DNA of 32,000 nt from Arthrobacter sp. H14-L1 (lineage in GTDB: Bacteria; Actinomycetota; Actinomycetes; Actinomycetales; Micrococcaceae), in contig NZ_JAPNLH010000026.1 in the NCBI RefSeq assembly GCF_026627425.1, positions 5,378 to 37,377 of the forward strand, given 5' to 3'. Under the pieces are notes generated by a model, which saw nothing but the letters and a program-made list of their open reading frames with translations, ran no database searches and was not told where the DNA came from. Both the position numbers and the translations under genes were made by a program. Numbering within the stretch: the stretch's first letter is position 1; each line of letters starts with the position of its first letter. Positions 5,633 through 32,000 of the stretch are shown here, piece by piece.

Positions 5633-5634
5633 GC

Positions 5635-6315
5635 ATGATGATAAATCCGGACGGTGCGCTGGGCCGCAGCGTGGACGACGGTGAAAGCCTCGCAGACTCG
5701 CTCAGCCCGCGTGAACTCGTGTCCTCCACAACGGTCTACCGGGGCCGGATCTGGGATGTCGTCAGCGATACTTTTGTTTTGCGGGACGCCGGGAAGCAGC
5801 TGACGCGGGATTACATTACCCATCCGGGAGCGGTGGCCGTGCTGGTGATGAATGCCGCCGGTGAGGTCTTGATGATCAGCCAGTACCGGCATCCGGTGGG
5901 GATGACGCTATGGGAGATCCCGGCCGGGCTCCTGGACGTCTCCGGCGAGGACTACGTTGAGGCCGCTGCCCGTGAGTTGGCCGAGGAAGCGGATCTGGTC
6001 GCCTCCCAGTGGCTGGTCCTGGCGGATGTTTTCAATTCGCCCGGATCCTCCAGCGAAGCGATCAGGATTTATTTGGCGCGGGGGCTTACCGAAGTGGATG
6101 CGGGGCTCCGGCACACCCGCACCGACGAGGAAGCGGAAATACGGTTCGCCTGGGTCTCTCTGGAGGACGCGGTCGCAGCGGTTCTGGACGGTTCCTTGCA
6201 TAACCCCTCTGCCGTCGTCGGCATACTCGCCGCAGCGGCCGCACGCGCCAGCGGTTTCGCCACCCTGCGTCCGGCCGATGCTCCCTGGCCGGCCCATCCG
6301 GACCAGCGCCAATAA
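5635..6315 (+). CDS. NUDIX hydrolase (ADP-ribose pyrophosphatase-like)
   Basis: Nudix box [27 protein letters not shown] lies 2 nt after the pyrG stop. The pyrG-nudix-xerD order is conserved in actinobacteria. Confidence 0.85.
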
Positions 6316-6316
6316 C

Positions 6317-7291
6317 GTGGATCCCCTCCCGCCGGCGTTGGAGCGGGCCGTGACCGACTACCTGCAGCATGTGGGTGTTGAGCGAGGTCTGGCACCCAAT
6401 ACTCTCAGCGCCTACCGGCGGGATCTGGGACGGTATCAGCGGTTCCTGGCTAAATCCGGCGTGCAGGCACCGGGGGAGATCACGCGGCACCATGTCACGG
6501 GCTTCTCGCTGACCATTGCTGAGGGCACCGACGGGTCCGCAGCGCTAGGCGTCCGGTCCGCGGCGAGGACCATTGTGGCCGTGCGGGGTCTGCATAAATT
6601 CTGGGCGTTGGAAGGGATGACGGCGACAGATCCGGCCGCGGACGTGCACCCTCCCATGGCGGGACGACGCCTGCCCAAGGCCATCAGCGTAGCCGAGGTG
6701 ACCCGATTGCTGGAGGCAGCCGGAGCGGACACTGCCACGGGATTGCGCGACCGCGCATTGCTCGAGTTCCTTTACTCCACCGGTTCCCGAATCAGCGAGG
6801 CCGTAGGGCTGGACGTGGACGACGTCGCGGTTGGTGCGGGCAGTGGCGTCCACGGCGCCTCGGGTTCGGCCGGTAGCCCTGCGGTGGTGCGGCTCTTTGG
6901 CAAGGGTTCCAAGGAACGCATGGTGCCGCTGGGCTCTTACGGGGCTCGGGCAGTACAGGCATATTTGGTGCGCGGCCGGCCCTTGCTGGCGGCCAAGGGC
7001 AAGGGCAGCCCCGCGCTATTCCTGAACGCCAGGGGCGGTCGAATCAGCCGGCAAAGTGCGTGGACCATTCTAAAGGTCGCGGCCGAGAAGGCAGAAATCA
7101 GTGCAGTCGTCTCACCGCACACGCTGCGGCATTCATTCGCCACGCATCTGCTGGAGGGGGGCGCCGATGTACGCGTCGTCCAGGAGTTGCTGGGCCACGC
7201 TTCGGTGACCACGACGCAGGTCTACACGCTGGTGACAGTGGAAACACTGCGGGAGGTCTACGCCGCCGCACACCCTCGCGCACTGGGGTAA
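6317..7291 (+). CDS. xerD: Tyrosine recombinase XerD
   Basis: The track ORF 5957-7291 is over-extended across the NUDIX gene. An in-frame GTG at 6317 (1 nt after the NUDIX stop) gives [37 protein letters not shown]... The catalytic region [12 protein letters not shown]...[14 protein letters not shown] is present. Confidence 0.9.
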
Positions 7292-7404
7292 CCCTGGATC
7301 GGGCCGTGGTAGTACTTGTGAGGTACTGGGCCAGCCGCGGTAAAGCATCAAGGCTGACCGGCAGCCGGACTGATTCCTGGCCTGCAGCCACGTACGCTGG
7401 GACC

Positions 7405-7911
7405 ATGACTGCTGCCGAGGTAACCCTGTGCTTCCTGCTCCGTGACGAGGATGGCCGGCAGGATGTGCTGCTGGGGCTGAAAAAGTCCGGCTTCGGCACC
7501 GGTAAGGTCGTGGGAATTGGCGGGCATCTGGAGCCGGGGGAGAGCGCCGCGCAGGCCATTTGCCGCGAGGTGGCCGAAGAAGTACATGTCCACGTCGAGG
7601 AATGCAGCCTGCTTGACGCCGGGACGGTTGACTTTGTTTTCCCCGCGAAACCTCAGTGGGACATGCACACTACGGTGTTTCTCAGCCGGCGATGGGAGGG
7701 CCAGCCCACCGAAAGCTCAGAGATTGCCCCGCAGTGGCATCCGGTCAGCACGCTGCCGCACGAACAAATGTGGGCGGACTCCCTCCGGTGGCTGCCACCC
7801 ATGTTGGCCGGGGAACGGCTGGCGGTGCGGGTAGTGCTCAATGCGGACAACGAAACCGTGGCCAATTACACAGCTAAGCCCTTGCTCAAACCGGCCGTAT
7901 CTGAAAAATGA
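7405..7911 (+). CDS. NUDIX hydrolase (MutT/MTH1-like 8-oxo-dGTPase type)
   Basis: The track ORF 7060-7911 is trimmed to the ATG at 7405 (MTAAEVTLCFLLRDEDG...). Nudix box GGHLEPGESAAQAICREVAEEVHV and C-terminal MWADSLRWLPPML motif. Confidence 0.8.
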   Translation: MTAAEVTLCFLLRDEDGRQDVLLGLKKSGFGTGKVVGIGGHLEPGESAAQAICREVAEEVHVHVEECSLLDAGTVDFVFPAKPQWDMHTTVFLSRRWEGQPTESSEIAPQWHPVSTLPHEQMWADSLRWLPPMLAGERLAVRVVLNADNETVANYTAKPLLKPAVSEK

Positions 7912-18951: not shown

Positions 18952-18996
18952 TCAGGCCCCTGTTTGCCGACCGCTGGTCGGTAAACAGGGGCCTGA
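18952..18996. terminator. Strong hairpin (about 20-bp stem), probable bidirectional terminator
   Basis: TCAGGCCCCTGTTTGCCGAC (18952-18971) pairs with GTCGGTAAACAGGGGCCTGA (18977-18996), with one G-U pair and a 5-nt loop. It begins 18 nt after the dctA stop. No U-tract on either side. It overlaps the last 15 codons of the convergent ABC ATPase ORF. Confidence 0.65.
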
Positions 18997-19794
18997 GCTG
19001 TTGATCGGGGCCGACGGCGGCAGCTGGCTGTTGCCGGACGGAAGGGTTTCCGCGGAGCCGTACCGCGGGACAACGGTGCGGCGCAGGGTCCCGTTGCCTT
19101 CCTGGTATTCCAGGGTGCTGACGCCGACGCCGTAAAGGTCGCTTAGCTGAACGGCGGTCAATAATTCTGCGGCACTCCCGGCCAGCACGCCGTCCCGGCG
19201 CATCAGGACCACGGAATCGGCCAGGTACAGCGCATGGTCCGGCTCGTGGGTGCTGAGCAAAAGGGCCATCCCGTCCGCCTTCAGATCCCGCAGCAGGGTC
19301 AGCACACGTACCTGGTTCTTTAGGTCCAGTCCGGTGGATGGTTCATCTAAGACAAGCAGGGGGCAGTCGGTGGCGACGGCGCGGGCAATGAGGACCAGCT
19401 GCTGTTCGCCTCCGCTGAGGGTGGGAAACAACCGGTCCGCCAGGTCGGCGATGCCGACCCGCTCCATGGCCTGCAGCGCTGCCGCCCGATCGGCCGCACC
19501 AGGGGAACGAAAAATGCGGACCTGGCGGGCCCTGCCCATGAGTACCATATCGAGCGCACGGTAGGCGAAGGAGCTGCTGTGCGCTTGAGGCACGTAGCCC
19601 ACCGTCTGCTCTCTGGTGATGGCGCCTTCGGTAGGCGCCAGAAGCCCGGCAGCACAGCGCACCAGCGTGGTCTTGCCGCTGCCATTCGGTCCCAGTACCG
19701 CCGTTGCAGTGCCCGACGTCACCCGGAAACTGACATCGCGGAAAATGTGTTCCGCCGCCCGGTAGCCGTAGGCAACGTGGTCCAGCTCAAGCAC
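18952..19794 (-). CDS. ABC transporter ATP-binding protein (FecE/BtuD-type)
   Basis: Walker A GPNGSGKTT, signature LSGGEQQ, Walker B LLVLDEP. The track start (GTG 19848) lies inside the permease gene. I prefer the GTG at 19794 (VLELDHVAYGY...), which overlaps the permease stop by 8 nt. The C-terminal ~50 aa are low-complexity. Confidence 0.85.
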   Translation of the reverse strand: MLELDHVAYGYRAAEHIFRDVSFRVTSGTATAVLGPNGSGKTTLVRCAAGLLAPTEGAITREQTVGYVPQAHSSSFAYRALDMVLMGRARQVRIFRSPGAADRAAALQAMERVGIADLADRLFPTLSGGEQQLVLIARAVATDCPLLVLDEPSTGLDLKNQVRVLTLLRDLKADGMALLLSTHEPDHALYLADSVVLMRRDGVLAGSAAELLTAVQLSDLYGVGVSTLEYQEGNGTLRRTVVPRYGSAETLPSGNSQLPPSAPINSSGPCLPTSGRQTGA

Positions 19795-20863
19795 TGTCCC
19801 AGATCCTGTCCCGGTTATGGCGCAGCAATAAAAAGAAAACCGGCGCACCGATCAGAGCGGTCAGCACACCTAATGGGATCTCCCCGGCCGTAGCTGTGCG
19901 GGCCACGCTATCAACTGCGGTGAGGTAGCACCCGCCCAGCAAAAAGCACACCGGCAGCAGCACCCGGTGGTCCGGTCCCACCCAGATGCGGGCCAGGTGG
20001 GGGATGACCAGTCCCACCCAGCTGATCACTCCGCTGACGGCCACCGCGCCGGCCACGATCAGTGCGACGGCGATCAGGACCACCACACGTAACGAGCGGG
20101 GCCGCAGACCCAACGCTGCGGCATCCTCATCGCCGAGGGACAGCACATTGATCCGCCAGCGCAGGGCCAGCAGCACGCCGGTCCCGGCCAGAATCGGGAT
20201 CACCGCGATCAGGACCTTGGCGTAATTCGCCGTCGCCACACTGCCCAGCAACCAGAAGACGATCGCAGGCAAGGTGGTGAACGGATCGGCACTATACGTG
20301 ATCAGCGCCACTAACGCGGAAAAGAACGATCCCACGACGACGCCGCCGAGAACGATCATGAGCATCGGGGTACCGCCGCGGCCGGAGACGATCAGGAACA
20401 GCAGGCCCAGCGCTGCCAACCCAAAGACAAAGGATCCGCCCACCAGGAGCAGGGAACCCAGGCCAAACAGCAGGGCCATCGCACCGCCAAAGGACGCCCC
20501 TGCCGATACGCCGATGATTTCCGGGCTGACCAGCGGATTACGAAAGATGGCCTGCAGCGCGGCGCCGCCCATGGCAAGACCGCCGCCCACCAGCAGTGCC
20601 AGCAGAACCCGGGGGAGCCGGACCAAGAGGACCACGGTTTCTTCGGAGCTGTTCATGGGCGTGTCCAGCGGCAGGAGCCGGGAGGCGAGGATCTGCACTA
20701 CATGCCAGAACGGGACGTGGTAGCGGCCTACCGTCAGCGCCAGCAGTGCCAGGGCGAGCAGCAGAATAGCCGTGACCGCTACGGGGCCGATTATCCGCGG
20801 GACCGACCGTGTGGCCGGGGCACCGAGTCGCTTGGGCCTCAGCTCCCGGACCTCACGCGCCAC
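19787..20863 (-). CDS. ABC permease, FecCD/BtuC family (metal-chelate type)
   Basis: 358 aa with about 9-10 hydrophobic segments. Family motif GGAALQAIFRNPLVSPEIIGVSAGASFG. The GTG start overlaps the binding-protein stop by 11 nt. Confidence 0.85.
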   Translation of the reverse strand: MAREVRELRPKRLGAPATRSVPRIIGPVAVTAILLLALALLALTVGRYHVPFWHVVQILASRLLPLDTPMNSSEETVVLLVRLPRVLLALLVGGGLAMGGAALQAIFRNPLVSPEIIGVSAGASFGGAMALLFGLGSLLLVGGSFVFGLAALGLLFLIVSGRGGTPMLMIVLGGVVVGSFFSALVALITYSADPFTTLPAIVFWLLGSVATANYAKVLIAVIPILAGTGVLLALRWRINVLSLGDEDAAALGLRPRSLRVVVLIAVALIVAGAVAVSGVISWVGLVIPHLARIWVGPDHRVLLPVCFLLGGCYLTAVDSVARTATAGEIPLGVLTALIGAPVFFLLLRHNRDRIWDSA

Positions 20864-22028
20864 GGAACTGTTCGTAGTCGGCGGATTTGCTGTTCACGCT
20901 CATCCACAATATGGTGTCGATTTCCGCCGAATCGGGTGCCTGCCCATACAGGAAGCGGTAATAGTCCGGGATGGCACCACGCAGGGCGGAGGACTTCTGG
21001 CTTGGGAAGCTGATGTCCGTAAGCCACTGCCACATCAGCGGTGATTCCTGGCCCGGGGGATCCCAGCGGTACCCGCCTAGGGGAACCTTGTAGACCCGCC
21101 GCTCGCGCACCGCCGAAACGTTCTGCCAGACCGGGTCAGAATAGATATCCTGCGGCAGTGCACCGTCGAAATTGCCCAGGAGGACGACCTCGGGATTCCA
21201 GGCCAGGACCTGCTCCACATCCACGCCCACCATGCCGGAACCCTTGACACCGGTACCCGCCGTGGCGGGATTGCTGCCGCCCACCAGCTTGATATAGAAA
21301 TCGTTGTAGCTCCCGTTGGCGGCTACCTTGAGTCCTCCCGTGAAACGGTTGAAATACAGAATGCGCGGTCCGGGGCCTGACCGGCCGGCAGCCAGAGCCC
21401 GGATCTTTGTCAGCTCCAGCTCGCTGCGGGATTTGATCGCGGTGGCCCGCTCCGGTTTGCCCAGCATTTCCGAGAACAGGGTCACCCACGCGTCAACATC
21501 CGACTGCTGTCCGGTGTTGGTCAAACCAAGGACCTTCAGGCCGGCATTCTCCAAGGGTCCGGTGAGTTGCGAATCGCTCCACTGCACCACGACATCCGGA
21601 TTCAGCGCCCGGATGCTTTCCACGTTGGGGGTGAAGTCCGTCGTGGCGATATCGTGCGGGACCGTCAAGGCCTTCGGAAAGAGTTTGCCCATGGTGCCGT
21701 CCCGCATAGCCAGCCACGAGGCATTGTGCATACCGCTCAGATGGTCAGCGCTTTGGTCAACGGCCACCAGCAGGGACGCGGCGGGCATTGGAATGGTCAC
21801 TACCCTGCTAACAGGTCTGTCAAACGTCAGTGTCTTGCCCCGCTGGTCAGTCAATCGAATGGTTTGGGCTAACGCCGAGGTGCTGCTTGGCGCCGGGGTG
21901 CCCTGCGGCGCCGCGGTGCCTTCCGGGGCCGAAGCGCTGTTATCCCCGCACGAGGACAGAAGAACCGCGCCTCCGCCGAGCATCATCATGGACAGAACCG
22001 AACGGCGGCTGATGTCGGGGTTGCGCAC
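20853..22028 (-). CDS. ABC substrate-binding lipoprotein (siderophore/heme/B12-type periplasmic binding protein) with a Tat-like signal
   Basis: GTG start with AGGAGG 7 nt upstream. N-terminus MRNPDISRRSVLSMMMLGGGAVLLSSCGD has a twin-arginine motif (SRRSVL) plus a lipobox (LLSSC). Its position upstream of the FecCD permease and ATPase supports the call. Confidence 0.8.
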   Translation of the reverse strand: MRNPDISRRSVLSMMMLGGGAVLLSSCGDNSASAPEGTAAPQGTPAPSSTSALAQTIRLTDQRGKTLTFDRPVSRVVTIPMPAASLLVAVDQSADHLSGMHNASWLAMRDGTMGKLFPKALTVPHDIATTDFTPNVESIRALNPDVVVQWSDSQLTGPLENAGLKVLGLTNTGQQSDVDAWVTLFSEMLGKPERATAIKSRSELELTKIRALAAGRSGPGPRILYFNRFTGGLKVAANGSYNDFYIKLVGGSNPATAGTGVKGSGMVGVDVEQVLAWNPEVVLLGNFDGALPQDIYSDPVWQNVSAVRERRVYKVPLGGYRWDPPGQESPLMWQWLTDISFPSQKSSALRGAIPDYYRFLYGQAPDSAEIDTILWMSVNSKSADYEQFRGA

Positions 22029-22229
22029 GAGCTGGCCTCCTTACAGGAAAGATCAGCAAAAGTTGCTCTCTTCGATTGCTCACAGCATCCGCCCGAACAG
22101 CGGGGCTGTCAACGGCGGCATGACCACATCTCCGGCACCGTCTCCGTCTCTGGCTCCGGTACTGATCCTTGTCGTCGGCGGCCGCTGGTGCTAGCGTCAA
22201 AATCATCTGTTGTGGAGCGAGGCCAACTC

Positions 22230-23003
22230 ATGGTTATTAACGGTGCCCAGTTGTTTGTCCGTTACGCGTATCCGCCCAATTCCCGGGGTAGTTGCGGACC
22301 TCAAGACAGCGACGCCCTTCTGCACTATGGTCAGTCCGGAGTGACGGACCGAGGGTTGAAGGAGCTGGCAAAAGGATTCGCCGGCGCGTGGCCGTATCTT
22401 GAACTGATCGCCCGGGCCACCAATATCACCGATCCACTGAATTACCGAGTGGTGGAGGCCTACTGGGTCGGGAACCCGCTGCTGGACACCGTCGGTGTGA
22501 GGAACATCGGCAATTCGATGGAGGACCGCTTCCGGGCCCGAACGGGCATGCAGTTCCCGCATTTGGTTGAGGGTGTTCTTGCCGGCGGGGTGCCGCACCA
22601 CAGTTTCCACGTCTTCGAGATCTATCCATGGCTGGGGCTGCTCCACGATGACCGCAGATACCCGACGGCGCTCAACGTGCTGGACCAGTGCCGCATCCGC
22701 TGGGGCGAGGTGTTGGCCGTGACCGGGGATGAGGCGCTGGTGCGCTCGCAGCCGCTGGTCTGGGACGGTGCGGTGCTGAGCCTGGGCCCGGCCATCGTGG
22801 AGACCGCCAAGCATGCCGTTGCGGGGACTGGCTTTGTGGCCAATCTGGCCGTCGGCGATGCGGTCTCGCTGCACTGGGATTGGGTCTGTGACAGGCTCAC
22901 CCCGCTGCAGCTGCAGCGGCTGCAGCACTTCACTGCCCGGCATCTGAAGATCGCCAACACCGGCGTCGAACACCGCGGCACGGCCGTCGCGCTTGAACGT
23001 TAA
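22230..23003 (+). CDS. Conserved hypothetical protein (I recall the N-terminal motif as DUF6390-like; unverified)
   Basis: The track ORF starts at GTG 22188. The ATG at 22230 has GAGG 7 nt upstream and gives MVINGAQLFVRYAYPPNSRGSCGPQDSDALLHYG... No catalytic motif recognised. Convergent on hypC with a 24-nt gap, and divergent from the ABC operon. Confidence 0.6.
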   Translation: MVINGAQLFVRYAYPPNSRGSCGPQDSDALLHYGQSGVTDRGLKELAKGFAGAWPYLELIARATNITDPLNYRVVEAYWVGNPLLDTVGVRNIGNSMEDRFRARTGMQFPHLVEGVLAGGVPHHSFHVFEIYPWLGLLHDDRRYPTALNVLDQCRIRWGEVLAVTGDEALVRSQPLVWDGAVLSLGPAIVETAKHAVAGTGFVANLAVGDAVSLHWDWVCDRLTPLQLQRLQHFTARHLKIANTGVEHRGTAVALER

Positions 23004-23027
23004 CGTCCCATCGTGGAGCGCCCGGTT

Positions 23028-23285
23028 CTAGCCAGCGGTCGCGTCCTCCTCCGGACCGGAACCCAAAAGTTTCAGCCCTCCCATCGCCCGCTCGGCTCCG
23101 GCCGCATCCACCCGCTCCAGCGCGAAGCCCATGTGGATAATTACCCAGCTTCCGGCTTCCAAGGGACCCTCATCCAGCAAGCCGATGTTGATTTTCCGCC
23201 GTACCCCGGCGACGTCTACCAGAGCCAGCTGATCGCCGTAGCCGGCGAGCAGCTCAATCACCCGGCCAGGGATTCCCAGGCACAT
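23028..23285 (-). CDS. hypC: Hydrogenase assembly chaperone HypC/HupF family
   Basis: Canonical N-terminus MCLGIPGRV with the essential Cys2. 85 aa. Last gene of the hydrogenase operon. Confidence 0.92.
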   Translation of the reverse strand: MCLGIPGRVIELLAGYGDQLALVDVAGVRRKINIGLLDEGPLEAGSWVIIHMGFALERVDAAGAERAMGGLKLLGSGPEEDATAG

Positions 23286-23863
23286 GAGCCATTTCTCCTT
23301 ATCGCTGGAAGAGATTCAGTAATTTCCTCGATGAGCTGCCCGATGGCGCTCAGCGCTTCGGGGATGGCGGCCGCCACGGCAGGGGACAGTCCGATTCCCT
23401 CCGACAAGTCTCCGGGCACGCAGCCCACCACAAATGTCAGCGGAACACCGCCGCCCAGCGACGTCAGCCTGCCCAGCACAGCCACCGGGTCCATCCCGTG
23501 CGGGTCCAAGGCCGGTGGGCCGCCGTCGTGATTGCTCTGCAGATCCTCGGAGCGGACCTGCAGCACACGGATGGCTCCGGACATTTCCGCAGCCGGATGG
23601 GAACGCGCGGATCCGTTGCCGCCACCCGTTCGAGGTGCCGGCACGGTATCGACCAGGATCAGGGCATCCACGCGGTCCAGCAGGTCATAGGCCAAATGCA
23701 TTCCACGGATGCCATAGTCCACCGCGTGGACGCCTGGACGGAGCATGGCCGCATCGGTCGCCATCGCGCGCGCGACCTCGGGACCGAACCCGTCGTCGTG
23801 CAGGAACATATTGCCTACTCCGGCCACGAGTATGCTGCGGGGGACAGTCTCGATGCCGCTCAC
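23258..23863 (-). CDS. [NiFe]-hydrogenase maturation endopeptidase (HupD/HyaD/HybD family)
   Basis: Conserved ILVAGVGNMFLHDDGFGPEV...DALILVD...DPHGMDP motifs. The track ORF (from 24235) runs across the upstream gene. I place the start at the GTG at 23863 (VSGIETVPRSILVAGVGN), which makes a GTGA overlap with the small ORF. The ATG at 23998 is the alternative. Confidence 0.8.
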   Translation of the reverse strand: MSGIETVPRSILVAGVGNMFLHDDGFGPEVARAMATDAAMLRPGVHAVDYGIRGMHLAYDLLDRVDALILVDTVPAPRTGGGNGSARSHPAAEMSGAIRVLQVRSEDLQSNHDGGPPALDPHGMDPVAVLGRLTSLGGGVPLTFVVGCVPGDLSEGIGLSPAVAAAIPEALSAIGQLIEEITESLPAIRRNGSCAWESLAG

Positions 23864-23979
23864 ATCCGGCTGATTTTCACGTAGCGGACAATGTCCGGAA
23901 TCGAGCGCACCATCACCGCGATTCCTGTCAGGGCGGTCAGTGCCAGCGTCACGGCGGACAGCTTTCCCAGGGTTTTCAT
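23860..23979 (-). CDS. Small (39 aa) predicted single-pass membrane peptide, absent from the ORF track
   Basis: Hand translation of the minus strand from 23979 gives MKTLGKLSAVTLALTALTGIAVMVRSIPDIVRYVKISRM*. It forms an ATGA overlap with the upstream stop and a GTGA overlap with the protease start. 31 of 39 codons end in G/C. Confidence 0.7.
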   Translation of the reverse strand: MKTLGKLSAVTLALTALTGIAVMVRSIPDIVRYVKISRM

Positions 23980-25460
23980 GTTCGGGTTTCCTTTCCATCA
24001 CCAGTAGCGGGTACCGGGTCGAGAGGCTCCAGCTCATCCGGAGAGAAGTAGAGGTATCGTCCGTACCATTCCTGCAGTTCCGCCGCCGGATCCGCTTCGA
24101 TGACGACGGCGACGTGAGTACTGCCGTCGACGTCGAAATGAACGCCGGTGACGCGCGCGCTCTGGCCGGTTGAGAACAGGTCCTGCGCATCGGCCCGGCG
24201 GTTCGGCATGACCACAACGCGGCTGCCCCTGGCAACGGGCACGCCTTTGATCACCACGGCGTCGGTTTCCGGCTTGACACTGGAATCGGCCGCGGGGTCC
24301 CACCAGGGAGCCTGTTTGAGGGGACTATCACCGAGCACCGGGAAGGCAGGGGTGAGGTCAGCGCCGTCCCGGGGTCCGCCCAGGAGTCCGGCACCCCATT
24401 GAACATCAGGCTCACCTGCTGCCTCCGCATGCGGGTTGCGGAGGATTCCGTGCAGCGCCTGCAATTGGTCATCGCTCATGGCCTCGCAACGGTCGATGAT
24501 CGCCGCAGCCCGCGGGTCCGTGGCCCTCGCCTCGGCCTTTTCATTCTCGGTGAGCGTCAGTACGCGCAGCGTGAGGATCTCATCGATTTCGGTTGAATCG
24601 TAGAGTTCAACCGAGCTTTCCGGCGCCACAGCGGGGTGGTCATAGAGAATGATCGGGGAGATCAGCAGGACGTCGCTTTGCCCCTCAGGCCCGGCAAGGA
24701 CAGGCCAGCCGCGGTGCTGGCTGCAGGCTGCCGCTGCGGCACGTAAGTTCTCCGGCGGGTCCAGCAGCGAGATGAAGTCCGCGTCCTGCACGCTCAGCAA
24801 CAGATGCGTGCCGATGAACGACAGCGCGATTGCTTCCTGCTTTTGAACCGTTCGGCCCGCCGCGGTATTTACCGCACTCACCCGAAGGCGCAGCGGCCCG
24901 GAATGGGATTCGCCGCCGTCGACGGGGTCGTGGAGAGTTCTGGCGCATAGCCTGACCTCTCCCCAGAGGGGCTTCCTTCTGCGCACGAGCCGTCCTGCCA
25001 GCGCCCCGGCCGCATCGTAGAGCAGCTCGGTCTCATCGGCGCCGGGAACCCGGACTGCCGTTATCAATCCACCGGCCAGTTGATCGAGCGCGAACGGGCC
25101 CAAGGTGATCTCCTGTTCGGTCGCCTCGTCCCACGTCAGCCATCGTGCAGCACCGATCTGCAGCGCAGGTACCGGGCTGAAGCTCCCGTCGTCGAACTCT
25201 TCACAGGTCCGGGACTGCAGCTGCAGGAAACGCAGATGCACCTCCAGCCGGGCCTCCGGGCCGGCGAGCAACAGGGTGTCCGCGAACATGGTTGACTCCT
25301 CGCCCGCTCCCGCGGCGGCCGCGCCGGGTGGGCCCAGGATGCCAAACTGCCAGCGTGACTGGTTTTTCTGCGAGGAGGCACGGTAGGGATAGAGGAGGTA
25401 GCCCTCGTAGAGGACCGCATCCGCGATGGCCCTGGCCAGGCTGAGGCTCGGATTCATCAT
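23976..25460 (-). CDS. Hydrogenase-operon protein of unknown function (494 aa)
   Basis: Long ORF with coding-like composition and an ATGA overlap at both ends. N-terminus MMNPSLSLARAIADAVLYEGYLLYPYRASSQKNQSRWQFG. No motif I can assign. Confidence 0.75.
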   Translation of the reverse strand: MMNPSLSLARAIADAVLYEGYLLYPYRASSQKNQSRWQFGILGPPGAAAAGAGEESTMFADTLLLAGPEARLEVHLRFLQLQSRTCEEFDDGSFSPVPALQIGAARWLTWDEATEQEITLGPFALDQLAGGLITAVRVPGADETELLYDAAGALAGRLVRRRKPLWGEVRLCARTLHDPVDGGESHSGPLRLRVSAVNTAAGRTVQKQEAIALSFIGTHLLLSVQDADFISLLDPPENLRAAAAACSQHRGWPVLAGPEGQSDVLLISPIILYDHPAVAPESSVELYDSTEIDEILTLRVLTLTENEKAEARATDPRAAAIIDRCEAMSDDQLQALHGILRNPHAEAAGEPDVQWGAGLLGGPRDGADLTPAFPVLGDSPLKQAPWWDPAADSSVKPETDAVVIKGVPVARGSRVVVMPNRRADAQDLFSTGQSARVTGVHFDVDGSTHVAVVIEADPAAELQEWYGRYLYFSPDELEPLDPVPATGDGKETRT

Positions 25461-26098
25461 TGGACCGGGTCACCGGCCGCCGCCAGCAACTCTTCGACAG
25501 CGGCTTCCCAGGTGGTAAGTCCGAGACTTGCTTTATAGAGCGCCAATGCTTTGATGACATCCCGATCAAGCCGGAGCCAGCCGCTGTTGGGGAAATGCTG
25601 GTTCATTAATTCGGTCCAGGTAGCGACCGGCAGTTGGAAGGACGCCTCGCGGTCCCACGGCACCGGTTCGACGCCGAACCCGGTGGCTCCTTTGGTGAAG
25701 ACGGTTCCGGAGAACAGCAGTTCCACCGGAATGCTCCGCTCGCGAAGCGCGTGCAGGTATTTCGCTGCGGCGACCTCGAAATCGAAGGTACAGGGAAGGG
25801 CGAGATCCACCATGGTCGCATTGCTGAAGCCCTGCACCATGGTGCTGCACTGCATCCAAAGGAAGGGTTTGAGCGTCGAGGGCCAGCGCACGCGGGTGCC
25901 GAAGAGATCCAGTAGACCAGCTTCCTCCTCCGGGGTGTAGCCACGGCGCTGCGGCTGAATCCGCACCTGGCAGCGCAATGCTATCGCGTGGATGGCCGTG
26001 CCCGTCGTTTCGGTGAGGCGCAGCCGGGCAGTCAGCTGTGGGGAGGCTGCGTAGCGTTCGGGAAGAATGTCCTCAATGCTGAAGCCAAGATCGGTCAT
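25457..26098 (-). CDS. Hydrogenase-operon protein of unknown function (213 aa; I recall homologues labelled DUF6084, unverified)
   Basis: ATGA overlaps at both ends. MTDLGFSIEDILPERYAASPQLTARLRLTE... No cofactor motif. Confidence 0.75.
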   Translation of the reverse strand: MTDLGFSIEDILPERYAASPQLTARLRLTETTGTAIHAIALRCQVRIQPQRRGYTPEEEAGLLDLFGTRVRWPSTLKPFLWMQCSTMVQGFSNATMVDLALPCTFDFEVAAAKYLHALRERSIPVELLFSGTVFTKGATGFGVEPVPWDREASFQLPVATWTELMNQHFPNSGWLRLDRDVIKALALYKASLGLTTWEAAVEELLAAAGDPVQ

Positions 26099-26793
26099 AA
26101 CCGGGGCCCGCTTCCGGCCCGGGCCGCTGTAGAGGAGGTTCCGAGGTATGGCCTGCTGCGGTTACTAACCCGCTCAAAGAAGGCCGAGAGCTGGACGCGC
26201 GCGTCCTGGCCGCCGTCGAAGCCCCGCCAGACTTTGCGCAGCTGACCGACCAGTTCGTAACAGGCATCAATCGGCACCAGATGACAATCGGCCTGCAGGC
26301 GCTCCGGCCCAGGAGCCCGGATCAGCAACGCCTCCGTGTCCGGGACGGCAGCGCCAACGGCAGGGTTGCGTGCCAGCACTGGTTCCCACGCACCCAGCGG
26401 CAGCTCCGACTCCGTGGCGCCGGCGGGGCCGGGATAAAACGCCACGGTCCGACCCATGCGGGAATTGGTGAAGAAGAATGCCAGGCCAACGGGTATCTCC
26501 AGTTCGTCCCACACCCCGGTTCCCAACTCAAATCCGGGAAAGGAAAGGTAACGCTCCGGCACGGAACGGTACCGCAGGTGTGCCGTTGCATCGGTAAAGA
26601 GCAAATAGCACGGCCGGCAGGTGCACATCAGGGCGCGGCTCTGAACATCGACCACGTGCTGGTGCTTTTCTGCCAGAGGCTCTGCGCACATCTCACAGCG
26701 CTCGCCGTCGGCGCTGGCGGAACGGCTGACGGCGATGCGCCGGAGCATGGCCACCGGCCCGGCGGCCGGGATGCTGCCTGTTCCGGGGCTCAT
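26095..26793 (-). CDS. Hydrogenase-operon Cys-motif protein of unknown function (232 aa; I recall homologues labelled DUF5947, unverified)
   Basis: The track ORF is trimmed to the ATG at 26793, which forms an ATGA overlap with the upstream stop. It contains CEMC-x20-CTCRPC. Confidence 0.75.
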   Translation of the reverse strand: MSPGTGSIPAAGPVAMLRRIAVSRSASADGERCEMCAEPLAEKHQHVVDVQSRALMCTCRPCYLLFTDATAHLRYRSVPERYLSFPGFELGTGVWDELEIPVGLAFFFTNSRMGRTVAFYPGPAGATESELPLGAWEPVLARNPAVGAAVPDTEALLIRAPGPERLQADCHLVPIDACYELVGQLRKVWRGFDGGQDARVQLSAFFERVSNRSRPYLGTSSTAARAGSGPRL

Positions 26794-27824
26794 GAAACGG
26801 TCCCGACTGGAATGGCGACGGAAATCACGCCGCCGCGCACGAGCAACGGAAGCGGATCCAGATGCAGTGCCTTGTCCTCCAGGCACGCACCGGCCATCCT
26901 TACATCGAAATGGGCCCGGCAGGTGGGGCACCGCAGCAGACCGCCTCCCGTAGGGGCCGCGAGGGCGCGCTGCAATGACGCCCCTGCCAGGGACTTCTCA
27001 CACCGCGGACAGTAGTCCAGGTAAGCGAAAATGTCCTCGCCGATCCGGCAGGCCAGCAGCCTGGCTCCGCCGACCAGAAAGCCTGCCACCTCCCCTGACC
27101 GGAGTCCGCCAAGCTCCGCCGCCGGCTCCCAGGCCCCACCCGACGGGCCGGGAACAGCGGGTTTGGCCTGCTGATCCCGATCATTTTGCTGATCCAGGCG
27201 CAGCCGCAGCGCGGCCACGGGAATGACGGCTGCGGAAGGGCTGGGCTCCTGCTCCACCACTTGGATGGATGTCACCTCGGGGGCCGCCGTTTCAATGGCA
27301 TCCTCGACCGCGAGCTTCAAAGTGACGGACGATGACGGGCAGCCGTGGCAGCTTCCCAATAGTCGCAGGCTCACGATCCCGTCCGCGCTGATACCCAGCA
27401 GCTCCACGTCGCCGCCATGGGAGCCAAGGTAGGGCCGCACACTATCGAGTGCAGCGGCGACTCTGGTCGGCACGTCCTGTGGATGCAGACCGTGGACCAG
27501 CAGTAAACCGGAGATCAGCTCATCCTTGACCAGGGCCTCCAAAGTGCCGTTGGTTTCACCTCCCCGGGCCGAAATTACGCCGAGAATGCGCTCCAGCCCG
27601 GCACCGTAGAGGTCCGTGACCTGCCGGACCAGCTCCTCGGAGCGCTCACGGGCCACCGCACCGCCGGAGGACAGCGCATCCAGCAGTGTTCCGATCCGTG
27701 TCCCCGAATTCCGCAGCTGGTCGGCGCCGGAGCCGGCCACTGCAGCCTGCCCCGCTGGCCGCGGCGCAGCGGCTGCAGGCGCAGCGGCTTCGCCTTGCTC
27801 CAGCAAACCGTCCTGCGCGATCAT
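26790..27824 (-). CDS. NifU(Nfu)-domain protein with a C-terminal Rieske-fold-like Cys4 domain (HhyE-like putative Fe-S protein)
   Basis: Nfu-type motif YLGSHGGDVELLGISADGIVSLRLLGSCHGCPSSSVTLKLAVEDAI (aa ~130-177). The C-terminal domain carries CPRC-x23-CPTC (aa 272-302). It lies immediately (6 nt) downstream of the large subunit. Confidence 0.8.
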   Translation of the reverse strand: MIAQDGLLEQGEAAAPAAAAPRPAGQAAVAGSGADQLRNSGTRIGTLLDALSSGGAVARERSEELVRQVTDLYGAGLERILGVISARGGETNGTLEALVKDELISGLLLVHGLHPQDVPTRVAAALDSVRPYLGSHGGDVELLGISADGIVSLRLLGSCHGCPSSSVTLKLAVEDAIETAAPEVTSIQVVEQEPSPSAAVIPVAALRLRLDQQNDRDQQAKPAVPGPSGGAWEPAAELGGLRSGEVAGFLVGGARLLACRIGEDIFAYLDYCPRCEKSLAGASLQRALAAPTGGGLLRCPTCRAHFDVRMAGACLEDKALHLDPLPLLVRGGVISVAIPVGTVS

Positions 27825-27830
27825 GGCGGG

Positions 27831-29624
27831 TCATTCTCCGGTGAGTGACTGCGTGGGGGAGTGCAGCATATCCAACGTTTTACCCTCGCCCAGATACATG
27901 TGCACGCCGCAGGGCAGACAGGGGTCAAAGCTGCGCACCGTGCGCATAATGTCGATTCCCTTGAAATGCTCCCGGTCGTTCTCTTCGAAGATGGGCTGCC
28001 CCTGCACCGCGTCTTCATACGGCCCCGGAGTTCCGGACGCGTCGCGCGGGCTGGCGTTCCACGGCGTTGGCGGATAGGGATGGTAGTTGGCGATCTTGCC
28101 GTCACGAATCACCATGTGGTGTGAAAGAACGCCGCGGACCGCTTCGGTAAAGCCGCAACTGACCGCCTCGTCCGGGACCTCAAACGATTCCCAGGTCTTG
28201 GTCCGTCCGGCCCGGATTTCCTCCAGCGCCTTCTCCGCGAAATGCAGGGCCGCGGCCGCCGCGTAGGCCTGGAAATAGGTGCGGGCCCGGTTGCGTTCGA
28301 GCGTGTTGCTCCACTGCGGAATCTTCCATTCGAGTGAGACTGGTCCTTTGAGAGCCGTCTTGGGCAGGTTGATCTCCACGCTGTGTCCGGTGGATTTGAG
28401 GTAGCCGATGTCGACGAGTCCGGCCAGCGCCGTCGACCAGAGCCGTGCCAGTGGGCCACCGCCGGTATCCAGCGCCAGATTATCCTGTCCGTCAAACCAG
28501 CGCGGTGACATAACCCAGCTGTATTTGTCCGTCAGGTCACGCTTTTGCGGGCGGGGATTGGTGTGCTGGTTCCACGGATGACGGCGGTCCACCGGGTTAC
28601 CGAGCGGGTCATTCGTGACGAACATCTCCTGATCATTCCAGTCCTCGTAGTAGGAGGAGCCCAGCATGATCCGGATGCCGAGGTTGATCCGCACCAGATC
28701 GGTGGTCACTAGCTTTCCGTCGACCACGACGCCCGGGGTGACAAACATCTTCCGGCCCCAGTCGGTCATGTCCTTGTAGGCGAAGTTGCAGTACTCCGGA
28801 TCCTGGAAGGAACCCCAGCACCCCAGCAGCGTCCGCCGCAGCCCGACTTGCTCATAGCCCGGTAGCGCGTCGTAGAAGAAATCGAAAAGATCATCGTGCA
28901 TGGGCACGACCTTCTTCATGAACTCCACATAACGCATCAGCCGGGTGAGGTAATCCGTCATCAGCTGGATCGTGGCAACGGTGCCGACTCCACCCGGATA
29001 AAGCGTGGAGGGGTGAACATGGCGACCCTCCATCAGGCAGAACATTTCCCGGGTGAGCCGGCTGACCTGCAGCGCTTCGCGGTAGAACTCACCGGTAAAA
29101 GGATTCAGCGAACGCATGATGTCCGCAATGGTCCGGTATCCGTGTTCGCCTTCATGCGGGGCCCGGGTGTTTTCCGCCTTGGCCAGTACCGCCGGGTTCG
29201 TCTCAGAGACCATTTTTTCGCAGTAGTCCACGCCCACCAGGTTCTCCTGGAAGATGTTGTGATCGAACATGTACTCCGCGGCTTCACCGAGATTGACGAT
29301 CCATTCGCCCAGATGCGGCGGCTTCACCCCATAGGCCATGTTTTGCGCATAACAGGAGCACGTGGCGTGATTATCGCCGCAGATCCCGCAGATCCGGCTG
29401 GTGATGAAGTGCGCGTCGCGAGGATCCTTGCCGCGCATGAAGATCGAGTACCCGCGGAAGATCGAGGAAGTGCTGTTGCACTGCACCACCTGCTTGTTTT
29501 TGAAATCTATTTTGGTATAGATGCCAAGGCTGCCGACAATCCGTGTGATGGGATCCCACGCCATCTCCACCAGTGAATCGTCCGCGGCGTTGCCCGATGC
29601 GGGTAACGGAATCGTGGAGGTCAT
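27831..29624 (-). CDS. hhyL: [NiFe]-hydrogenase large subunit, group 1h (formerly group 5)
   Basis: L1 motif TSRICGICGDNHATCS and L2 motif SFDPCLPCGVH, followed by a 22-aa C-terminal extension (MYLGEGKTLDMLHSPTQSLTGE) for protease cleavage. 597 aa. RBS AAGAGG. Confidence 0.95.
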   Translation of the reverse strand: MTSTIPLPASGNAADDSLVEMAWDPITRIVGSLGIYTKIDFKNKQVVQCNSTSSIFRGYSIFMRGKDPRDAHFITSRICGICGDNHATCSCYAQNMAYGVKPPHLGEWIVNLGEAAEYMFDHNIFQENLVGVDYCEKMVSETNPAVLAKAENTRAPHEGEHGYRTIADIMRSLNPFTGEFYREALQVSRLTREMFCLMEGRHVHPSTLYPGGVGTVATIQLMTDYLTRLMRYVEFMKKVVPMHDDLFDFFYDALPGYEQVGLRRTLLGCWGSFQDPEYCNFAYKDMTDWGRKMFVTPGVVVDGKLVTTDLVRINLGIRIMLGSSYYEDWNDQEMFVTNDPLGNPVDRRHPWNQHTNPRPQKRDLTDKYSWVMSPRWFDGQDNLALDTGGGPLARLWSTALAGLVDIGYLKSTGHSVEINLPKTALKGPVSLEWKIPQWSNTLERNRARTYFQAYAAAAALHFAEKALEEIRAGRTKTWESFEVPDEAVSCGFTEAVRGVLSHHMVIRDGKIANYHPYPPTPWNASPRDASGTPGPYEDAVQGQPIFEENDREHFKGIDIMRTVRSFDPCLPCGVHMYLGEGKTLDMLHSPTQSLTGE

Positions 29625-29650
29625 TGCCTTGCCTCTTTCTCGTGCCGTTC

Positions 29651-30709
29651 TTACCAGGTGCGGGTGGCGCCGGTGAGCAGTTCGGGGCCGGTCCTGCGCC
29701 AGCGTGGTTCCTTGTCAAGGGTGTTCATGGTGATGTGCCGCAGCGTCCGCACGGCAGCGCCGTAGGGCCGCACGGCATTGGTGGAGAGAATGCTGCCCGG
29801 CGGCTCATCCATGAACGGCATGAACTTATCGGGGAACCCCGGCATCGTGCAGCCTATGCAGATACCACCAACGTTCGGGCACCCGCCAATTCCATTCATC
29901 CAGCCGCGCTTGGGAACATTGCATTTAACCACCGGGCCCCAGCAGCCCAGCTTTACGATGCATTTCGGCGAGCCGTATTCAGTGGCAAAATCACCTTGCT
30001 CGTAATACCCCGCCCGGTCGCATCCCTCGTGCACGGTCCGGCCGAAAAGCCACGTCGGCCGCAGCGCGTCGTCCAACGGAATCATGGGCGCCTGCCCGGT
30101 CGCCTGGTACAGCAGGTAGGTGATGGTTTCGGAGAGATTGTCAGGTTGGATGGGGCAGCCCGGAACACAGACAATCGGTATTCCGGCCTTGGACCTCCAG
30201 TCATAGCCAAGGTAATCGGGAACGCCCATCGCACCGGTGGGATTGCCGGCCATGGCATGGATACCGCCATAGGCCGCGCAGGTTCCGGCGGCAATAATGG
30301 CAGTTGCCTTCGGTGCAAGCCGGTCCAGCCATTCGCTTGTCGTAATGGGCTGCCCGGTCTCCAGATCGTTGCCGAAACCCGACCAGTATCCGCCGACGTC
30401 GTGCAACTTCTCGTTGGGAATGGAACCCTCGACAACGAGGACAAATGGCTCCAGTTCGCCCCGGTCCGCCTTCCGGAACCACTCGAGGAAGTCATCTGCA
30501 CCCTCCTGGGGGCCGCATTCAAAATCAATGAGCGGCCAATGCATGGCAACCTGCGGCAGACCGGGCAGGGCACCGAGTGCTATTTCCTCCACGCTGGGCT
30601 GCGTAGCCGCGGTCAGCGCCACGGAGTCGCCGTCGCAGCTGAGACCGGCGTTGATCCATAGGACATGAATAAGAGATTCTTCGGCTTTTATCGAAGCTTC
30701 TGTAGGCAT
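29651..30709 (-). CDS. hhyS: [NiFe]-hydrogenase small subunit, group 1h, no Tat signal
   Basis: It starts MPTEASIKAEESLIHVLWINAGLSCDGDS with no twin-arginine leader. Fe-S ligand regions GTCAAYGG, VPGCP and GCWGPVVKCNVP...GGCPNVGGICIGC. Strong RBS AAGGAGG. Confidence 0.95.
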   Translation of the reverse strand: MPTEASIKAEESLIHVLWINAGLSCDGDSVALTAATQPSVEEIALGALPGLPQVAMHWPLIDFECGPQEGADDFLEWFRKADRGELEPFVLVVEGSIPNEKLHDVGGYWSGFGNDLETGQPITTSEWLDRLAPKATAIIAAGTCAAYGGIHAMAGNPTGAMGVPDYLGYDWRSKAGIPIVCVPGCPIQPDNLSETITYLLYQATGQAPMIPLDDALRPTWLFGRTVHEGCDRAGYYEQGDFATEYGSPKCIVKLGCWGPVVKCNVPKRGWMNGIGGCPNVGGICIGCTMPGFPDKFMPFMDEPPGSILSTNAVRPYGAAVRTLRHITMNTLDKEPRWRRTGPELLTGATRTW

Positions 30710-30750: not shown

Positions 30751-31668
30751 TTATGCGTTTGTCTGCACCTGCGACTCGGACGCCATCGGATGCGATTGGG
30801 CGCCCGCGTGCGACGCCGGTGTTTGAGTGTTCTTGATCAGCCAGTCGTACCAGCTGTCCAGACCAGCGCCGTTCGTGGCGGAAATAGCGAGCATCTCGAC
30901 GTGCGGATTCAGCTGTCGTGCCTGGCGGAGGCATTCATCCACGTCGAATTCAACATAGGGCAGCAGATCGGACTTATTGATTATCACTAGATCTGCGGCC
31001 ATAAACATGTGCGGATATTTTTGCGGCTTATCATCACCTTCCGTGACGGAAATAATCACTACCTTGGCTGTTTCCCCCAGATCAAAAAGCGCCGGACAGA
31101 CCAGATTTCCGACATTTTCAATAAAGAGCGTTGATCCCGGAGCCGGGTTGAGTGCTTCGAGCCCCCGTCGGAGCATATCGGCGTCCAGATGGCAGCCGGC
31201 TCCGGTATTAATCTGAACAGCTGGACGCCCGGCGCTACGAATGCGGTCGGCATCCAGCGACGTCTCCTGGTCACCTTCAATGACCGTAATGCCCAGCCTT
31301 TCGCCCAGCTCTTCAATGGTGCGGACCAGCAAAGTCGTCTTGCCTGCCCCGGGGGAACTCATCACATTGAATGCCTGGATGGCACGCCCGGCCAGCCAGC
31401 CCCGGTTTCGCGCGGCCAACAGGTCGTTCTTGGCCAGCAGGCTCTGCTCCAGCGTGATCGTGGTCACTGGAGCATGGGTATGTGCCGGGCCACCCTCGTG
31501 CGAGTGGTTGTGTCCGCCGTCGTGCGCGTGCTCCTGCTGGTGCCCGTCGGGGTGTTCACCGTCGTGCACATGCTGATGTCCGTGGTCCGGTTCCGGGACG
31601 GCGACGCTGCCGTTTACGCTTGACACCCGAACCTCGCCGTCGTCGCTGCAACCGCAGGTGGAGCACAT
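30751..31668 (-). CDS. hypB: Hydrogenase nickel incorporation GTPase HypB
   Basis: The track ORF is trimmed to the ATG at 31668 (MCSTCGCS, a CxxCGC Ni site). His-rich tract HGHQHVHDGEHPDGHQQEHAHDGGHNHSHEGGPAHTH. P-loop SSPGAGKTT. ENVGNLVCP and NKSDL motifs. Confidence 0.95.
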   Translation of the reverse strand: MCSTCGCSDDGEVRVSSVNGSVAVPEPDHGHQHVHDGEHPDGHQQEHAHDGGHNHSHEGGPAHTHAPVTTITLEQSLLAKNDLLAARNRGWLAGRAIQAFNVMSSPGAGKTTLLVRTIEELGERLGITVIEGDQETSLDADRIRSAGRPAVQINTGAGCHLDADMLRRGLEALNPAPGSTLFIENVGNLVCPALFDLGETAKVVIISVTEGDDKPQKYPHMFMAADLVIINKSDLLPYVEFDVDECLRQARQLNPHVEMLAISATNGAGLDSWYDWLIKNTQTPASHAGAQSHPMASESQVQTNA

Positions 31669-31670
31669 AT

Positions 31671-32000
31671 TTACCCCACTTCCACGGACGCAAGCATCAG
31701 CTCGCGGCCGCCCGTGATTTCGATGTCGGCGCTGCCGCAGGTGCACAGCGGAATCGTGTCCGGAAGAATGAAACTCTGCCGGCACGTGTGGCAGGTGGCC
31801 CGGCCGGCCGGCTCGTCGATGCGTAGATCGGCGCCGGCCAGCGGAGTTCCCTCCGCCAGCAATTGGAAACAGAACCGCAAGGCATCCGGCAGGACGCCAC
31901 TTAGCCGTCCGATCCGCAGGTTCACCCCGGTGACAGTGCGATCGCCGGTGCGGTCAAGCACCGCGTCGACCAGGCTTTGGGTAATGGAGAGTTCGTGCAT
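31671..32000 (-). CDS. hypA: Hydrogenase nickel insertion protein HypA
   Basis: MHELSITQSLVD N-terminus (MHE Ni site) and Zn motif CHTC...CTCG. 109 aa. The ATG falls exactly at the window edge (31998-32000), and the TAA lies 2 nt before the hypB ATG. Confidence 0.9.
   Translation of the reverse strand: MHELSITQSLVDAVLDRTGDRTVTGVNLRIGRLSGVLPDALRFCFQLLAEGTPLAGADLRIDEPAGRATCHTCRQSFILPDTIPLCTCGSADIEITGGRELMLASVEVG

Follow-up and report, generated by a model that had tools for sequence, protein, structure and literature searches.

A conserved DUF6893 gene in group 1h [NiFe]-hydrogenase operons encodes a predicted single-pass membrane peptide

We found that a 39-codon open reading frame (ORF) in Arthrobacter sp. 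H14-L1 is, judged by comparison with related loci, a real and conserved protein-coding gene of the operon for a group 1h (Hhy) [NiFe]-hydrogenase. The DNA analysed, hereafter the window, is a stretch of 32,000 nucleotides (assembly GCF_026627425.1, contig NZ_JAPNLH010000026.1, positions 5,378 to 37,377), and all unlabelled coordinates refer to it. The ORF lies on the minus strand at 23860..23979 (39 codons plus TGA) and was assigned as a DUF6893 small-protein gene from its translation, its match to Pfam PF21833 and its homologs. Its product is predicted to span the membrane once, and we tentatively propose that it tethers Hhy to the membrane. With group 1h hydrogenases, soil bacteria can subsist on the traces of H2 in the atmosphere, and these enzymes represent a large part of the H2 sink worldwide; in mycobacteria, Acidobacteria and Verrucomicrobia they are tightly bound to the membrane.

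Evidence for a real gene

The minus-strand ORF runs from an ATG start to a TGA stop and translates as MKTLGKLSAVTLALTALTGIAVMVRSIPDIVRYVKISRM. Its ATG shares bases with the stop codon of an ORF of 494 amino acids (aa) (ATGA, 23976-23979), and its TGA shares bases with the GTG of the maturation protease gene (GTGA, 23860-23863), from which the protease N-terminus reads VSGIETVPRSILVAGVGN, as is normal for the protease family. A G or C was found at the third position in 31 of the 39 codons. The ORF, its exact translation, both overlaps and this codon count are all as an earlier sequence-only reading of the window had given them. A Shine-Dalgarno-like sequence, GGAAAGGA, is present on the minus strand at 23989..23996, with its AAGGA core (23989-23993) ending 9 nucleotides (nt) upstream of the ATG, and no promoter-like or terminator-like sites were found around the ORF. 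It should be noted that the size of the ORF alone is not significant, because the ORF listing of the window has 96 ORFs of 30 aa or more overlapping positions 20000-28000; its significance comes from the Pfam match and from its conservation in all informative actinobacterial loci.

These loci numbered 80, with one genome per species, and were picked solely by similarity to the large subunit HhyL; they span Arthrobacter, Rhodococcus, Nocardia, Mycobacterium, Streptomyces, Actinoplanes, Modestobacter and many metagenome-assembled genomes (MAGs). They were searched for the peptide in six frames with an iterated profile (E < 1e-4). A homolog was found in 78 of 78 informative loci, the other two ending short of the expected position, and it was always located on the hydrogenase strand about 3.5-4 kb past hhyL, which confirms the expectation of a conserved ORF at the same position in related group 1h loci. 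The copies are fixed at 39 codons and start at the same aligned codon in 75 of 80 cases (ATG in 65 and GTG in 10), with a Shine-Dalgarno core (GGAG, GAGG or AGGA) 6-10 nt upstream in 67 of these 75 loci compared to 14% of random windows. The translational coupling suggested for both ends of the ORF also recurs: the peptide start and the stop of the upstream 494-aa homolog share bases in 47 of 76 other loci (4 nt in 28 of the 47), and the -4 overlap with the protease start is found in 15. When looked up from the peptide side, three out of three family members sit in a standard hydrogenase cluster.

We also compared the ratio of nonsynonymous to synonymous differences (pN/pS, from pooled Nei-Gojobori proportions) between reading frames. 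This was 0.62 in the peptide frame overall (0.78 in the helix and 0.40 in the tail) versus 1.09 and 1.22 in the two shifted frames, a contrast which is understated since synonymous sites are near saturation. Positional entropy at codon positions 1, 2 and 3 was 1.05, 0.75 and 1.39, respectively, and the G+C content of third positions (GC3) was 82%.

Several loci in this set have unusual arrangements. An actinobacterial MAG contains two tandem, clearly diverged DUF6893 genes between the 494-aa homolog and the protease (L067, 15525-15644 and 15658-15777). In another MAG (L021, 15440-15500) the 494-aa homolog and the peptide appear to be naturally fused, a reading we rejected because the shared frame results from one extra A compared to the close relative L024. 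The peptide ORF is likewise frameshifted in L020 (15800-16000), and as both are MAG contigs an assembly error is possible in each. In L087, peptide and protease are separated by two short ORFs (7151-7354 and 7383-7556) with very acidic products rich in Gly, Asp and Glu. Gaps of 220-630 nt between peptide and protease were seen in L007, L012, L013, L015, L026, L028, L030, L034, L039, L042, L049, L051 and L058, several of which are Streptomyces.

Membership of the DUF6893 family

The peptide matched Pfam DUF6893 (PF21833) at 36.3 bits, above the gathering cut-off of 24.6 (E = 5.6e-9, residues 10-39). With a length of 39 aa and the C-terminus IPDIVRYVKISRM, it fits the family pattern P-D-x-x-R-Y-h-K/R-h-R-x-M ending at about 39-40 aa, and its position in a group 1h cluster adjoining a maturation endopeptidase fits the setting in which DUF6893 is found empirically, which is not Pfam's own criterion. 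By its sequence, the peptide is a DUF6893 member on every feature examined. A motif, PDIxRYLxIRxM, which the sequence-only reading had linked to a small-protein DUF family of hydrogenase loci, was verified as that of DUF6893. The window copy does not differ in kind from the family; its particulars are ISRM in place of the IRxM of most members and a helix less hydrophobic than any other in the set.

We found relatives at 82-97% identity, two of which have been named 'DUF6893 family small protein' by NCBI, and in GCA_025491075.1 the identical peptide has been called as a gene and labelled PF21833. The ORF is therefore not really hidden, except from a length-filtered ORF track; as an object the peptide is already known from a Pfam family, NCBI names and public gene calls. 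A profile built from 72 copies drew 2047 database relatives, the best 120 of which were all 39-40 aa long, while an exhaustive phmmer search with the peptide alone, a weak search given so short a query, returned 2 representatives. NCBIfam had no model for the peptide, a PDB sequence search gave no relative, a full-text literature search for 'DUF6893' returned no paper and a literature search on the locus tags of Cupriavidus necator returned nothing relevant to the peptide. In the searchable literature we did not find stated the near-universal syntenic presence of the peptide in group 1h clusters across phyla, the existence of short proteobacterial and long forms, the invariant D-R-Y-M tail, or the standing of the peptide as sole transmembrane candidate of the operon.

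Anatomy and predicted topology of the peptide

Residue conservation was determined from alignments of 72 and 101 copies. Both alignments show D29, R32, Y33 and the C-terminal M39 without exception, and M1, G5 and P28 with few exceptions or none; the 101-copy set adds S26 as invariant and R25 and R37 as nearly invariant. Residues 6-24 vary freely and are hydrophobic throughout. These patterns divide the peptide into a predicted transmembrane helix (residues 2-25; 23905..23976, minus strand), which rests on an AlphaFold2 (AF2) helix, hydropathy and an identity across genera of only 25%, and a conserved basic C-terminal helix IPDIVRYVKISRM (residues 27-39; 23863..23901, minus strand), which rests on the alignments, pN/pS, charge and AF2. 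Cross-genus identity to the window copy was 60% for the tail, compared to 85-87% for the subunits HhyS and HhyL and 47-61% for the products of the accessory genes. Loci without an overlapping downstream gene also retain the terminal Met, and its invariance thus acts at the protein level.

The highest Kyte-Doolittle mean over 19 residues (KD19) was at least 1.6 in 82 of 82 family members, most of which contain an uncharged run of 18-27 residues; the window peptide (KD19 = 1.81) was the lowest of the 82 copies. The net charge after the hydrophobic run was +3 to +5 in 77 of the 82 members and that of the N-terminal flank was -1 to +2, a distribution which predicts an N-out/C-in orientation with the tail in the cytoplasm. 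Using the family alignment, AF2 gave two helices, at residues 2-25 and 27-38, with a break between them at 26 (mean predicted local distance difference test score, pLDDT, 94). The peptide is accordingly modelled as a transmembrane helix (2-25), a Ser26-Pro28 kink and a short basic helix (27-39), and the suggestion of one hydrophobic helix with a basic tail holds as a prediction. Amphipathicity of the tail was not detected (helical moment 0.69 versus 0.88 ± 0.43 in shuffles). There is no His or Cys among the 39 residues and the peptide cannot carry electrons itself, because it has none of these residues for a cofactor.

The hydrophobic segment of the peptide is the most hydrophobic among the operon products. 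The next is found in HhyE (KD19 = 1.73), which we do not read as transmembrane because it contains an Arg and several Gly residues and lies inside a weak Rieske-like match. On these sequence features the peptide is the only predicted transmembrane candidate in the operon.

Homologs beyond Actinomycetota

Six-frame searches revealed short ORFs at the same position in proteobacterial plasmids. C. necator H16 pHG1 encodes MKGFLKYLVLPALVVALLANIKDIRRYIRIRSM (L081, 14702-14803; 33 aa, E = 2.2e-6) directly after the protease gene, with a short, proline-interrupted hydrophobic stretch. A Methylocystis parvus plasmid encodes MGLFEIILGLLILALIAFNFRDIVRYIKITMM (L082, 14326-14424; 32 aa), also directly after the protease gene, which scored weakly and matches by position and motif. 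Both ORFs have their own Shine-Dalgarno sequence. A 39-aa copy was found in a Mycobacterium plasmid. The small gene is listed at this position in none of the PLSDB gene tables for pHG1, the Methylocystis plasmid and the Mycobacterium plasmid; these tables are incomplete and the original records may still list the small ORFs.

We also examined the 80 metagenomic loci nearest to Methylocystis HhyL, scoring the 38 which contained the protease gene and at least 300 nt beyond it. An ORF with the DUF6893 C-terminal motif was present in 34 of the 38, and 31 of these adjoin the protease. Many of the metagenomic copies are a 'long form' of 67-71 aa with one hydrophobic segment. The long form occurs after the protease in L101 (13699-13911), L094 (10561-10767), L129 (13743-13958) and about 25 other metagenomic loci, and consists of a polar N-terminus, the hydrophobic segment, an internal RRYLG and then ...PDLDRYLKLRxM. 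In two of the four loci where no copy was detected, a different ORF ending ...GGxLKLKxExKxAFD... follows the protease (L113, 13340-13590; L144, 5750-6280).

A second short DUF6893-like ORF lies within 400 nt of an orphan HhyS-like gene in 10 of the 27 metagenomic loci with room for it. Neither a large subunit nor a protease gene adjoins the orphan gene; the genes after it encode a PAS histidine kinase and a LuxR-type regulator. In L112, the DUF6893-like ORF (2718-2849, minus strand) and the orphan module (3033-6628, plus strand, with a 391-aa small-subunit-like gene) lie upstream of hhyS; L110, L115, L119, L120, L123, L128, L129, L154 and L157 have a similar arrangement, with the second ORF mostly divergent. 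The set of orphan small subunit, kinase and regulator may be an H2-responsive regulatory module, though one without a large-subunit gene.

Across the aligned copies and their loci, the family is defined by the C-terminal motif; it is strictly accompanied by the group 1h cluster, and no neighbour is more constant than the protease gene.

The group 1h hydrogenase operon of the window

By homology and gene content, the operon in the window is a group 1h (Hhy) [NiFe]-hydrogenase operon of Arthrobacter type, and the nearest relatives are from Arthrobacter species. All genes lie on the minus strand in the order hypB (30751-31785, assigned by Pfam and NCBIfam), hhyS for the small subunit (29651-30709, Pfam and NCBIfam), hhyL for the large subunit (27831-29624, Pfam and NCBIfam), the NifU/Rieske-like hhyE (26790-27824, Pfam), DUF5947 (26095-26931, Pfam), DUF6084 (25457-26098, Pfam), the 494-aa gene (23976..25460, from the ORF listing), the peptide gene, the [NiFe]-hydrogenase maturation endopeptidase gene (23258..23863; TIGR00072, E = 2.3e-25 from residue 12, and Pfam HycI) and hypC (23028..23285; Pfam HupF_HypC, E = 8e-21), so that hhyS and hhyL together span 27831..30709 and the accessory block from hhyE to DUF6084 spans 25457..27824. 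The set of hhyE, DUF5947 and DUF6084 is also present in the C. necator, Methylocystis and Mycobacterium plasmid loci, and the same order was seen in the loci reached from the peptide side. Read at its longest, the DUF5947 ORF shares 142 nt with the end of hhyE, and its Pfam match begins at residue 78; the true start is probably further downstream.

HhyL is 76.7% identical to the product of the C. necator pHG1 gene, and its sole PDB match with E < 1e-50 was chain C of 5AA5 (1078.8 bits), the C. necator enzyme and the sole solved group 1h structure. The N-terminus of HhyS, MPTEASIKAEESLIHVLW..., is by inspection without an RRxF motif and hence without a twin-arginine translocation (Tat) signal. 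The highest KD19 in HhyS was 1.25, indicating no transmembrane segment, by inspection rather than by a dedicated predictor.

The 494-aa gene has no Pfam family; its homologs precede the peptide in most actinobacterial loci. At least 7998 homologs of the 494-aa protein were found, but no relative in Pfam, NCBIfam or PDB sequences. Its AF2 model (pLDDT 69) contains a confident beta-sandwich at residues ~40-250, and Foldseek comparison of the model to the PDB gave TM-scores of 0.2 or less, except for a small C-terminal barrel weakly resembling PetP. This neighbour gives no functional lead for the peptide because it has no convincing PDB match. After hypC the window contains a family-less 256-aa ORF and then an ABC importer set of Peripla_BP_2, FecCD permease and ATPase (18952-22973, minus strand), where other Actinomycetota have hypF, hypC, hypD and hypE.

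Discussion

We tentatively favour a role for the DUF6893 peptide as a membrane tether of Hhy. Its helix would be embedded in the cytoplasmic membrane, and a cytoplasmic component of Hhy would be bound by the invariant tail (P-D-x-x-R-Y-h-K/R-h-R-x-M-COOH), most plausibly at the HhyS/HhyE electron-output side. This would hold an enzyme lacking both transmembrane segments and Tat signals at the membrane next to menaquinone, making the peptide in effect a detached 'tail anchor'. A partner on the small-subunit/HhyE side is probable because a DUF6893 paralog adjoins the orphan small-subunit genes. A more specific proposal, which we put forward with still greater reserve, is that DUF6893 is a true additional subunit and the group 1h anchor, with its tail clamping the HhyS/HhyE module, and that it is needed for coupling to menaquinone and possibly for high H2 affinity. 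The peptide has the one or more membrane-spanning segments expected of an anchor subunit, as far as these can be predicted.

The tether reading speaks to a puzzle in the literature. The Hhy of Mycobacterium smegmatis is found in the membrane fraction only and is not released by 5% cholate, although it has no obvious transmembrane regions (10.1101/769216), and Methylacidiphilum poses the same anchor puzzle (PMC7174314). That group 1h enzymes are membrane-associated without a known anchor, as the sequence-only reading had stated, is borne out by these reports and a third (10.1101/769216; PMC7174314; PMC13332983). Published operon analyses found no transmembrane protein in the group 1h operon, and a 2026 paper still reports the anchor subunit of the membrane-bound group 1h enzyme as unidentified. 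In M. smegmatis, induction of the operon extends to the 'hypothetical protein' MSMEG_2714, whose gene is flanked by MSMEG_2715 and that of the protease MSMEG_2713 (PMC5445863); by synteny alone MSMEG_2714 is probably the DUF6893 ortholog.

A number of observations weigh against a tether. We considered whether the soluble C. necator enzyme might lack the peptide, which would have backed this role, but its locus also encodes a homolog (33 aa, after the protease). The presence or absence of the peptide therefore does not explain membrane binding; the short, proline-interrupted stretch of this homolog is compatible with a soluble enzyme, in what is a single case. It should also be noted that it is the maturation protease, and not hhyS or hhyL, that neighbours the peptide most consistently from phylum to phylum, which fits a role in maturation equally well, and that 4 of the 38 metagenomic loci have no detectable copy. 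The match of 5AA5 was to HhyL alone and no PDB entry contains the peptide. With 60% identity, conservation of the tail does not exceed that of the accessory genes and falls below that of HhyS and HhyL (85-87%), and the helix of the window copy is the least hydrophobic of the family.

The main competing explanation, which we consider rather doubtful though it deserves serious attention, is that the peptide is a maturation or assembly factor sited at the membrane, working with the endopeptidase and the Hyp machinery, for example by bringing the final processing of HhyL and HhyS to the membrane, and is absent from the mature enzyme. The peptide adjoins the protease gene in both of its arrangements, preceding it in most Actinomycetota and following it in 5 actinobacterial loci, C. 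necator, Methylocystis and 31 of the 38 metagenomic loci, and it lies at the boundary between the accessory genes and hypC/hypF. The C. necator enzyme was crystallised without it, as far as the PDB sequences show, and its level of conservation is like that of the accessory and maturation genes. However, where genes are packed so tightly into an operon, being neighbours says little about partnership, the peptide resembles no known maturation factor (Pfam gave DUF6893 only and NCBIfam nothing), and a second copy stands beside orphan small-subunit-like genes with no large subunit or protease nearby. No hydrogenase endopeptidase (HybD/HycI) is known to need a membrane partner. We regard as unlikely another trans-acting role in H2 oxidation of the kind played by small membrane proteins such as CydX, in which the peptide would serve a respiratory partner or quinone site or modulate Ni or Fe uptake. 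Strict co-occurrence with group 1h clusters, the existence of loci with two copies or long forms of 67-71 aa, and a conserved tail (Asp, Arg, Tyr and terminal Met) which could bind a partner encoded elsewhere are all consistent with this, but the gene context suggests no specific partner and the transporter genes near the cluster differ among loci.

Two further explanations assign no function to the peptide at all. Its translation might only deliver ribosomes to the protease start, and indeed both ends of the ORF overlap its neighbours in the window and the protease GTG has no obvious Shine-Dalgarno sequence. We think this very improbable in view of the selection on amino acids (invariant D, R, Y and M, and a tail pN/pS of 0.40), the fixed length of 39 aa and the retention of the peptide where it follows the protease or stands 200-600 nt apart from it. 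That the ORF is not a gene, but a 5' extension of the protease from ATG 23998 or a chance ORF, we reject as scarcely credible on the comparative data (pN/pS, synteny and Pfam). No stop codon interrupts the protease frame across this region in the window or in 74 of 78 loci, and short ORFs are abundant in G+C-rich DNA, but this openness follows from the GC3 of 82%, and with a pN/pS of 1.22 the frame shows no constraint at the protein level, compared to 0.62 in the peptide frame and 0.40 in the tail. Protease homology begins at residue 12 counted from the GTG, the family starting a few residues before ILVxGxGN, and both the Pfam match and cross-phylum conservation favour the peptide frame. The sequence-only reading had likewise preferred a genuine coding ORF to a protease extension.

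The proposed tether can be compared to several known systems. Canonical group 1 anchors, of the Escherichia coli HyaA/HybO type, consist of a C-terminal transmembrane tail on the small subunit of a Tat-exported periplasmic enzyme with a haem-binding cytochrome b partner. The likeness is a single helix at the membrane, which the DUF6893 peptide would supply in trans to the tail-less HhyS; it differs in being encoded by a separate gene, in facing the cytoplasm by the positive-inside rule and in having no His or Cys. An electron-transferring anchor of the cytochrome b type (HyaC/HoxZ kind) was rejected, as the peptide has one helix and no His haem ligands. CydX of cytochrome bd is a single-transmembrane accessory subunit encoded in its operon, and such peptides of 30-40 aa are often missed in annotation; the analogy to our peptide is one of size, single helix and operon encoding, with no sequence similarity evident.

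Small predicted transmembrane proteins, HylTM1-5 of group 1l and two single-transmembrane proteins of 82-92 aa of group 1m, have also been described in hydrogenase clusters (PMC9561532). Like the peptide, these are short single-pass proteins within clusters of closely related O2-tolerant uptake hydrogenases; compared by description only, they differ from it in size and position, lying in group 1l between the small and large subunit genes (PMC9561532). The other high-affinity hydrogenase of M. smegmatis, the group 2a Huc, offers a parallel in HucM, an overlooked operon protein which proved to be its membrane-associating subunit (PMC10017518). HucM is likewise an operon-encoded extra protein which links a high-affinity hydrogenase without transmembrane segments or a Tat signal to the membrane and to menaquinone, but it has 189 residues and forms a tetrameric scaffold with an amphipathic coiled-coil tube in peripheral contact with the membrane, whereas the peptide has 39 aa and a single predicted helix (PMC10017518). 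Homology between them would not be expected; they differ in size and predicted architecture.

As an annotation the DUF6893 gene is ordinary, yet it bears on how bacteria which oxidise atmospheric H2 wire their hydrogenase to the membrane. Among the products of the conserved cluster, the peptide alone is predicted to span the membrane, and almost all the loci we examined in the various phyla encode it, so that the question of the anchor can be reduced to a direct experiment on one 39-codon gene. If the tether reading is true, DUF6893 would be the long-sought anchor of the enzymes behind much of the soil sink for atmospheric H2, and attachment to the membrane may be needed for the high apparent affinity for H2 which the soluble C. 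necator enzyme lacks.

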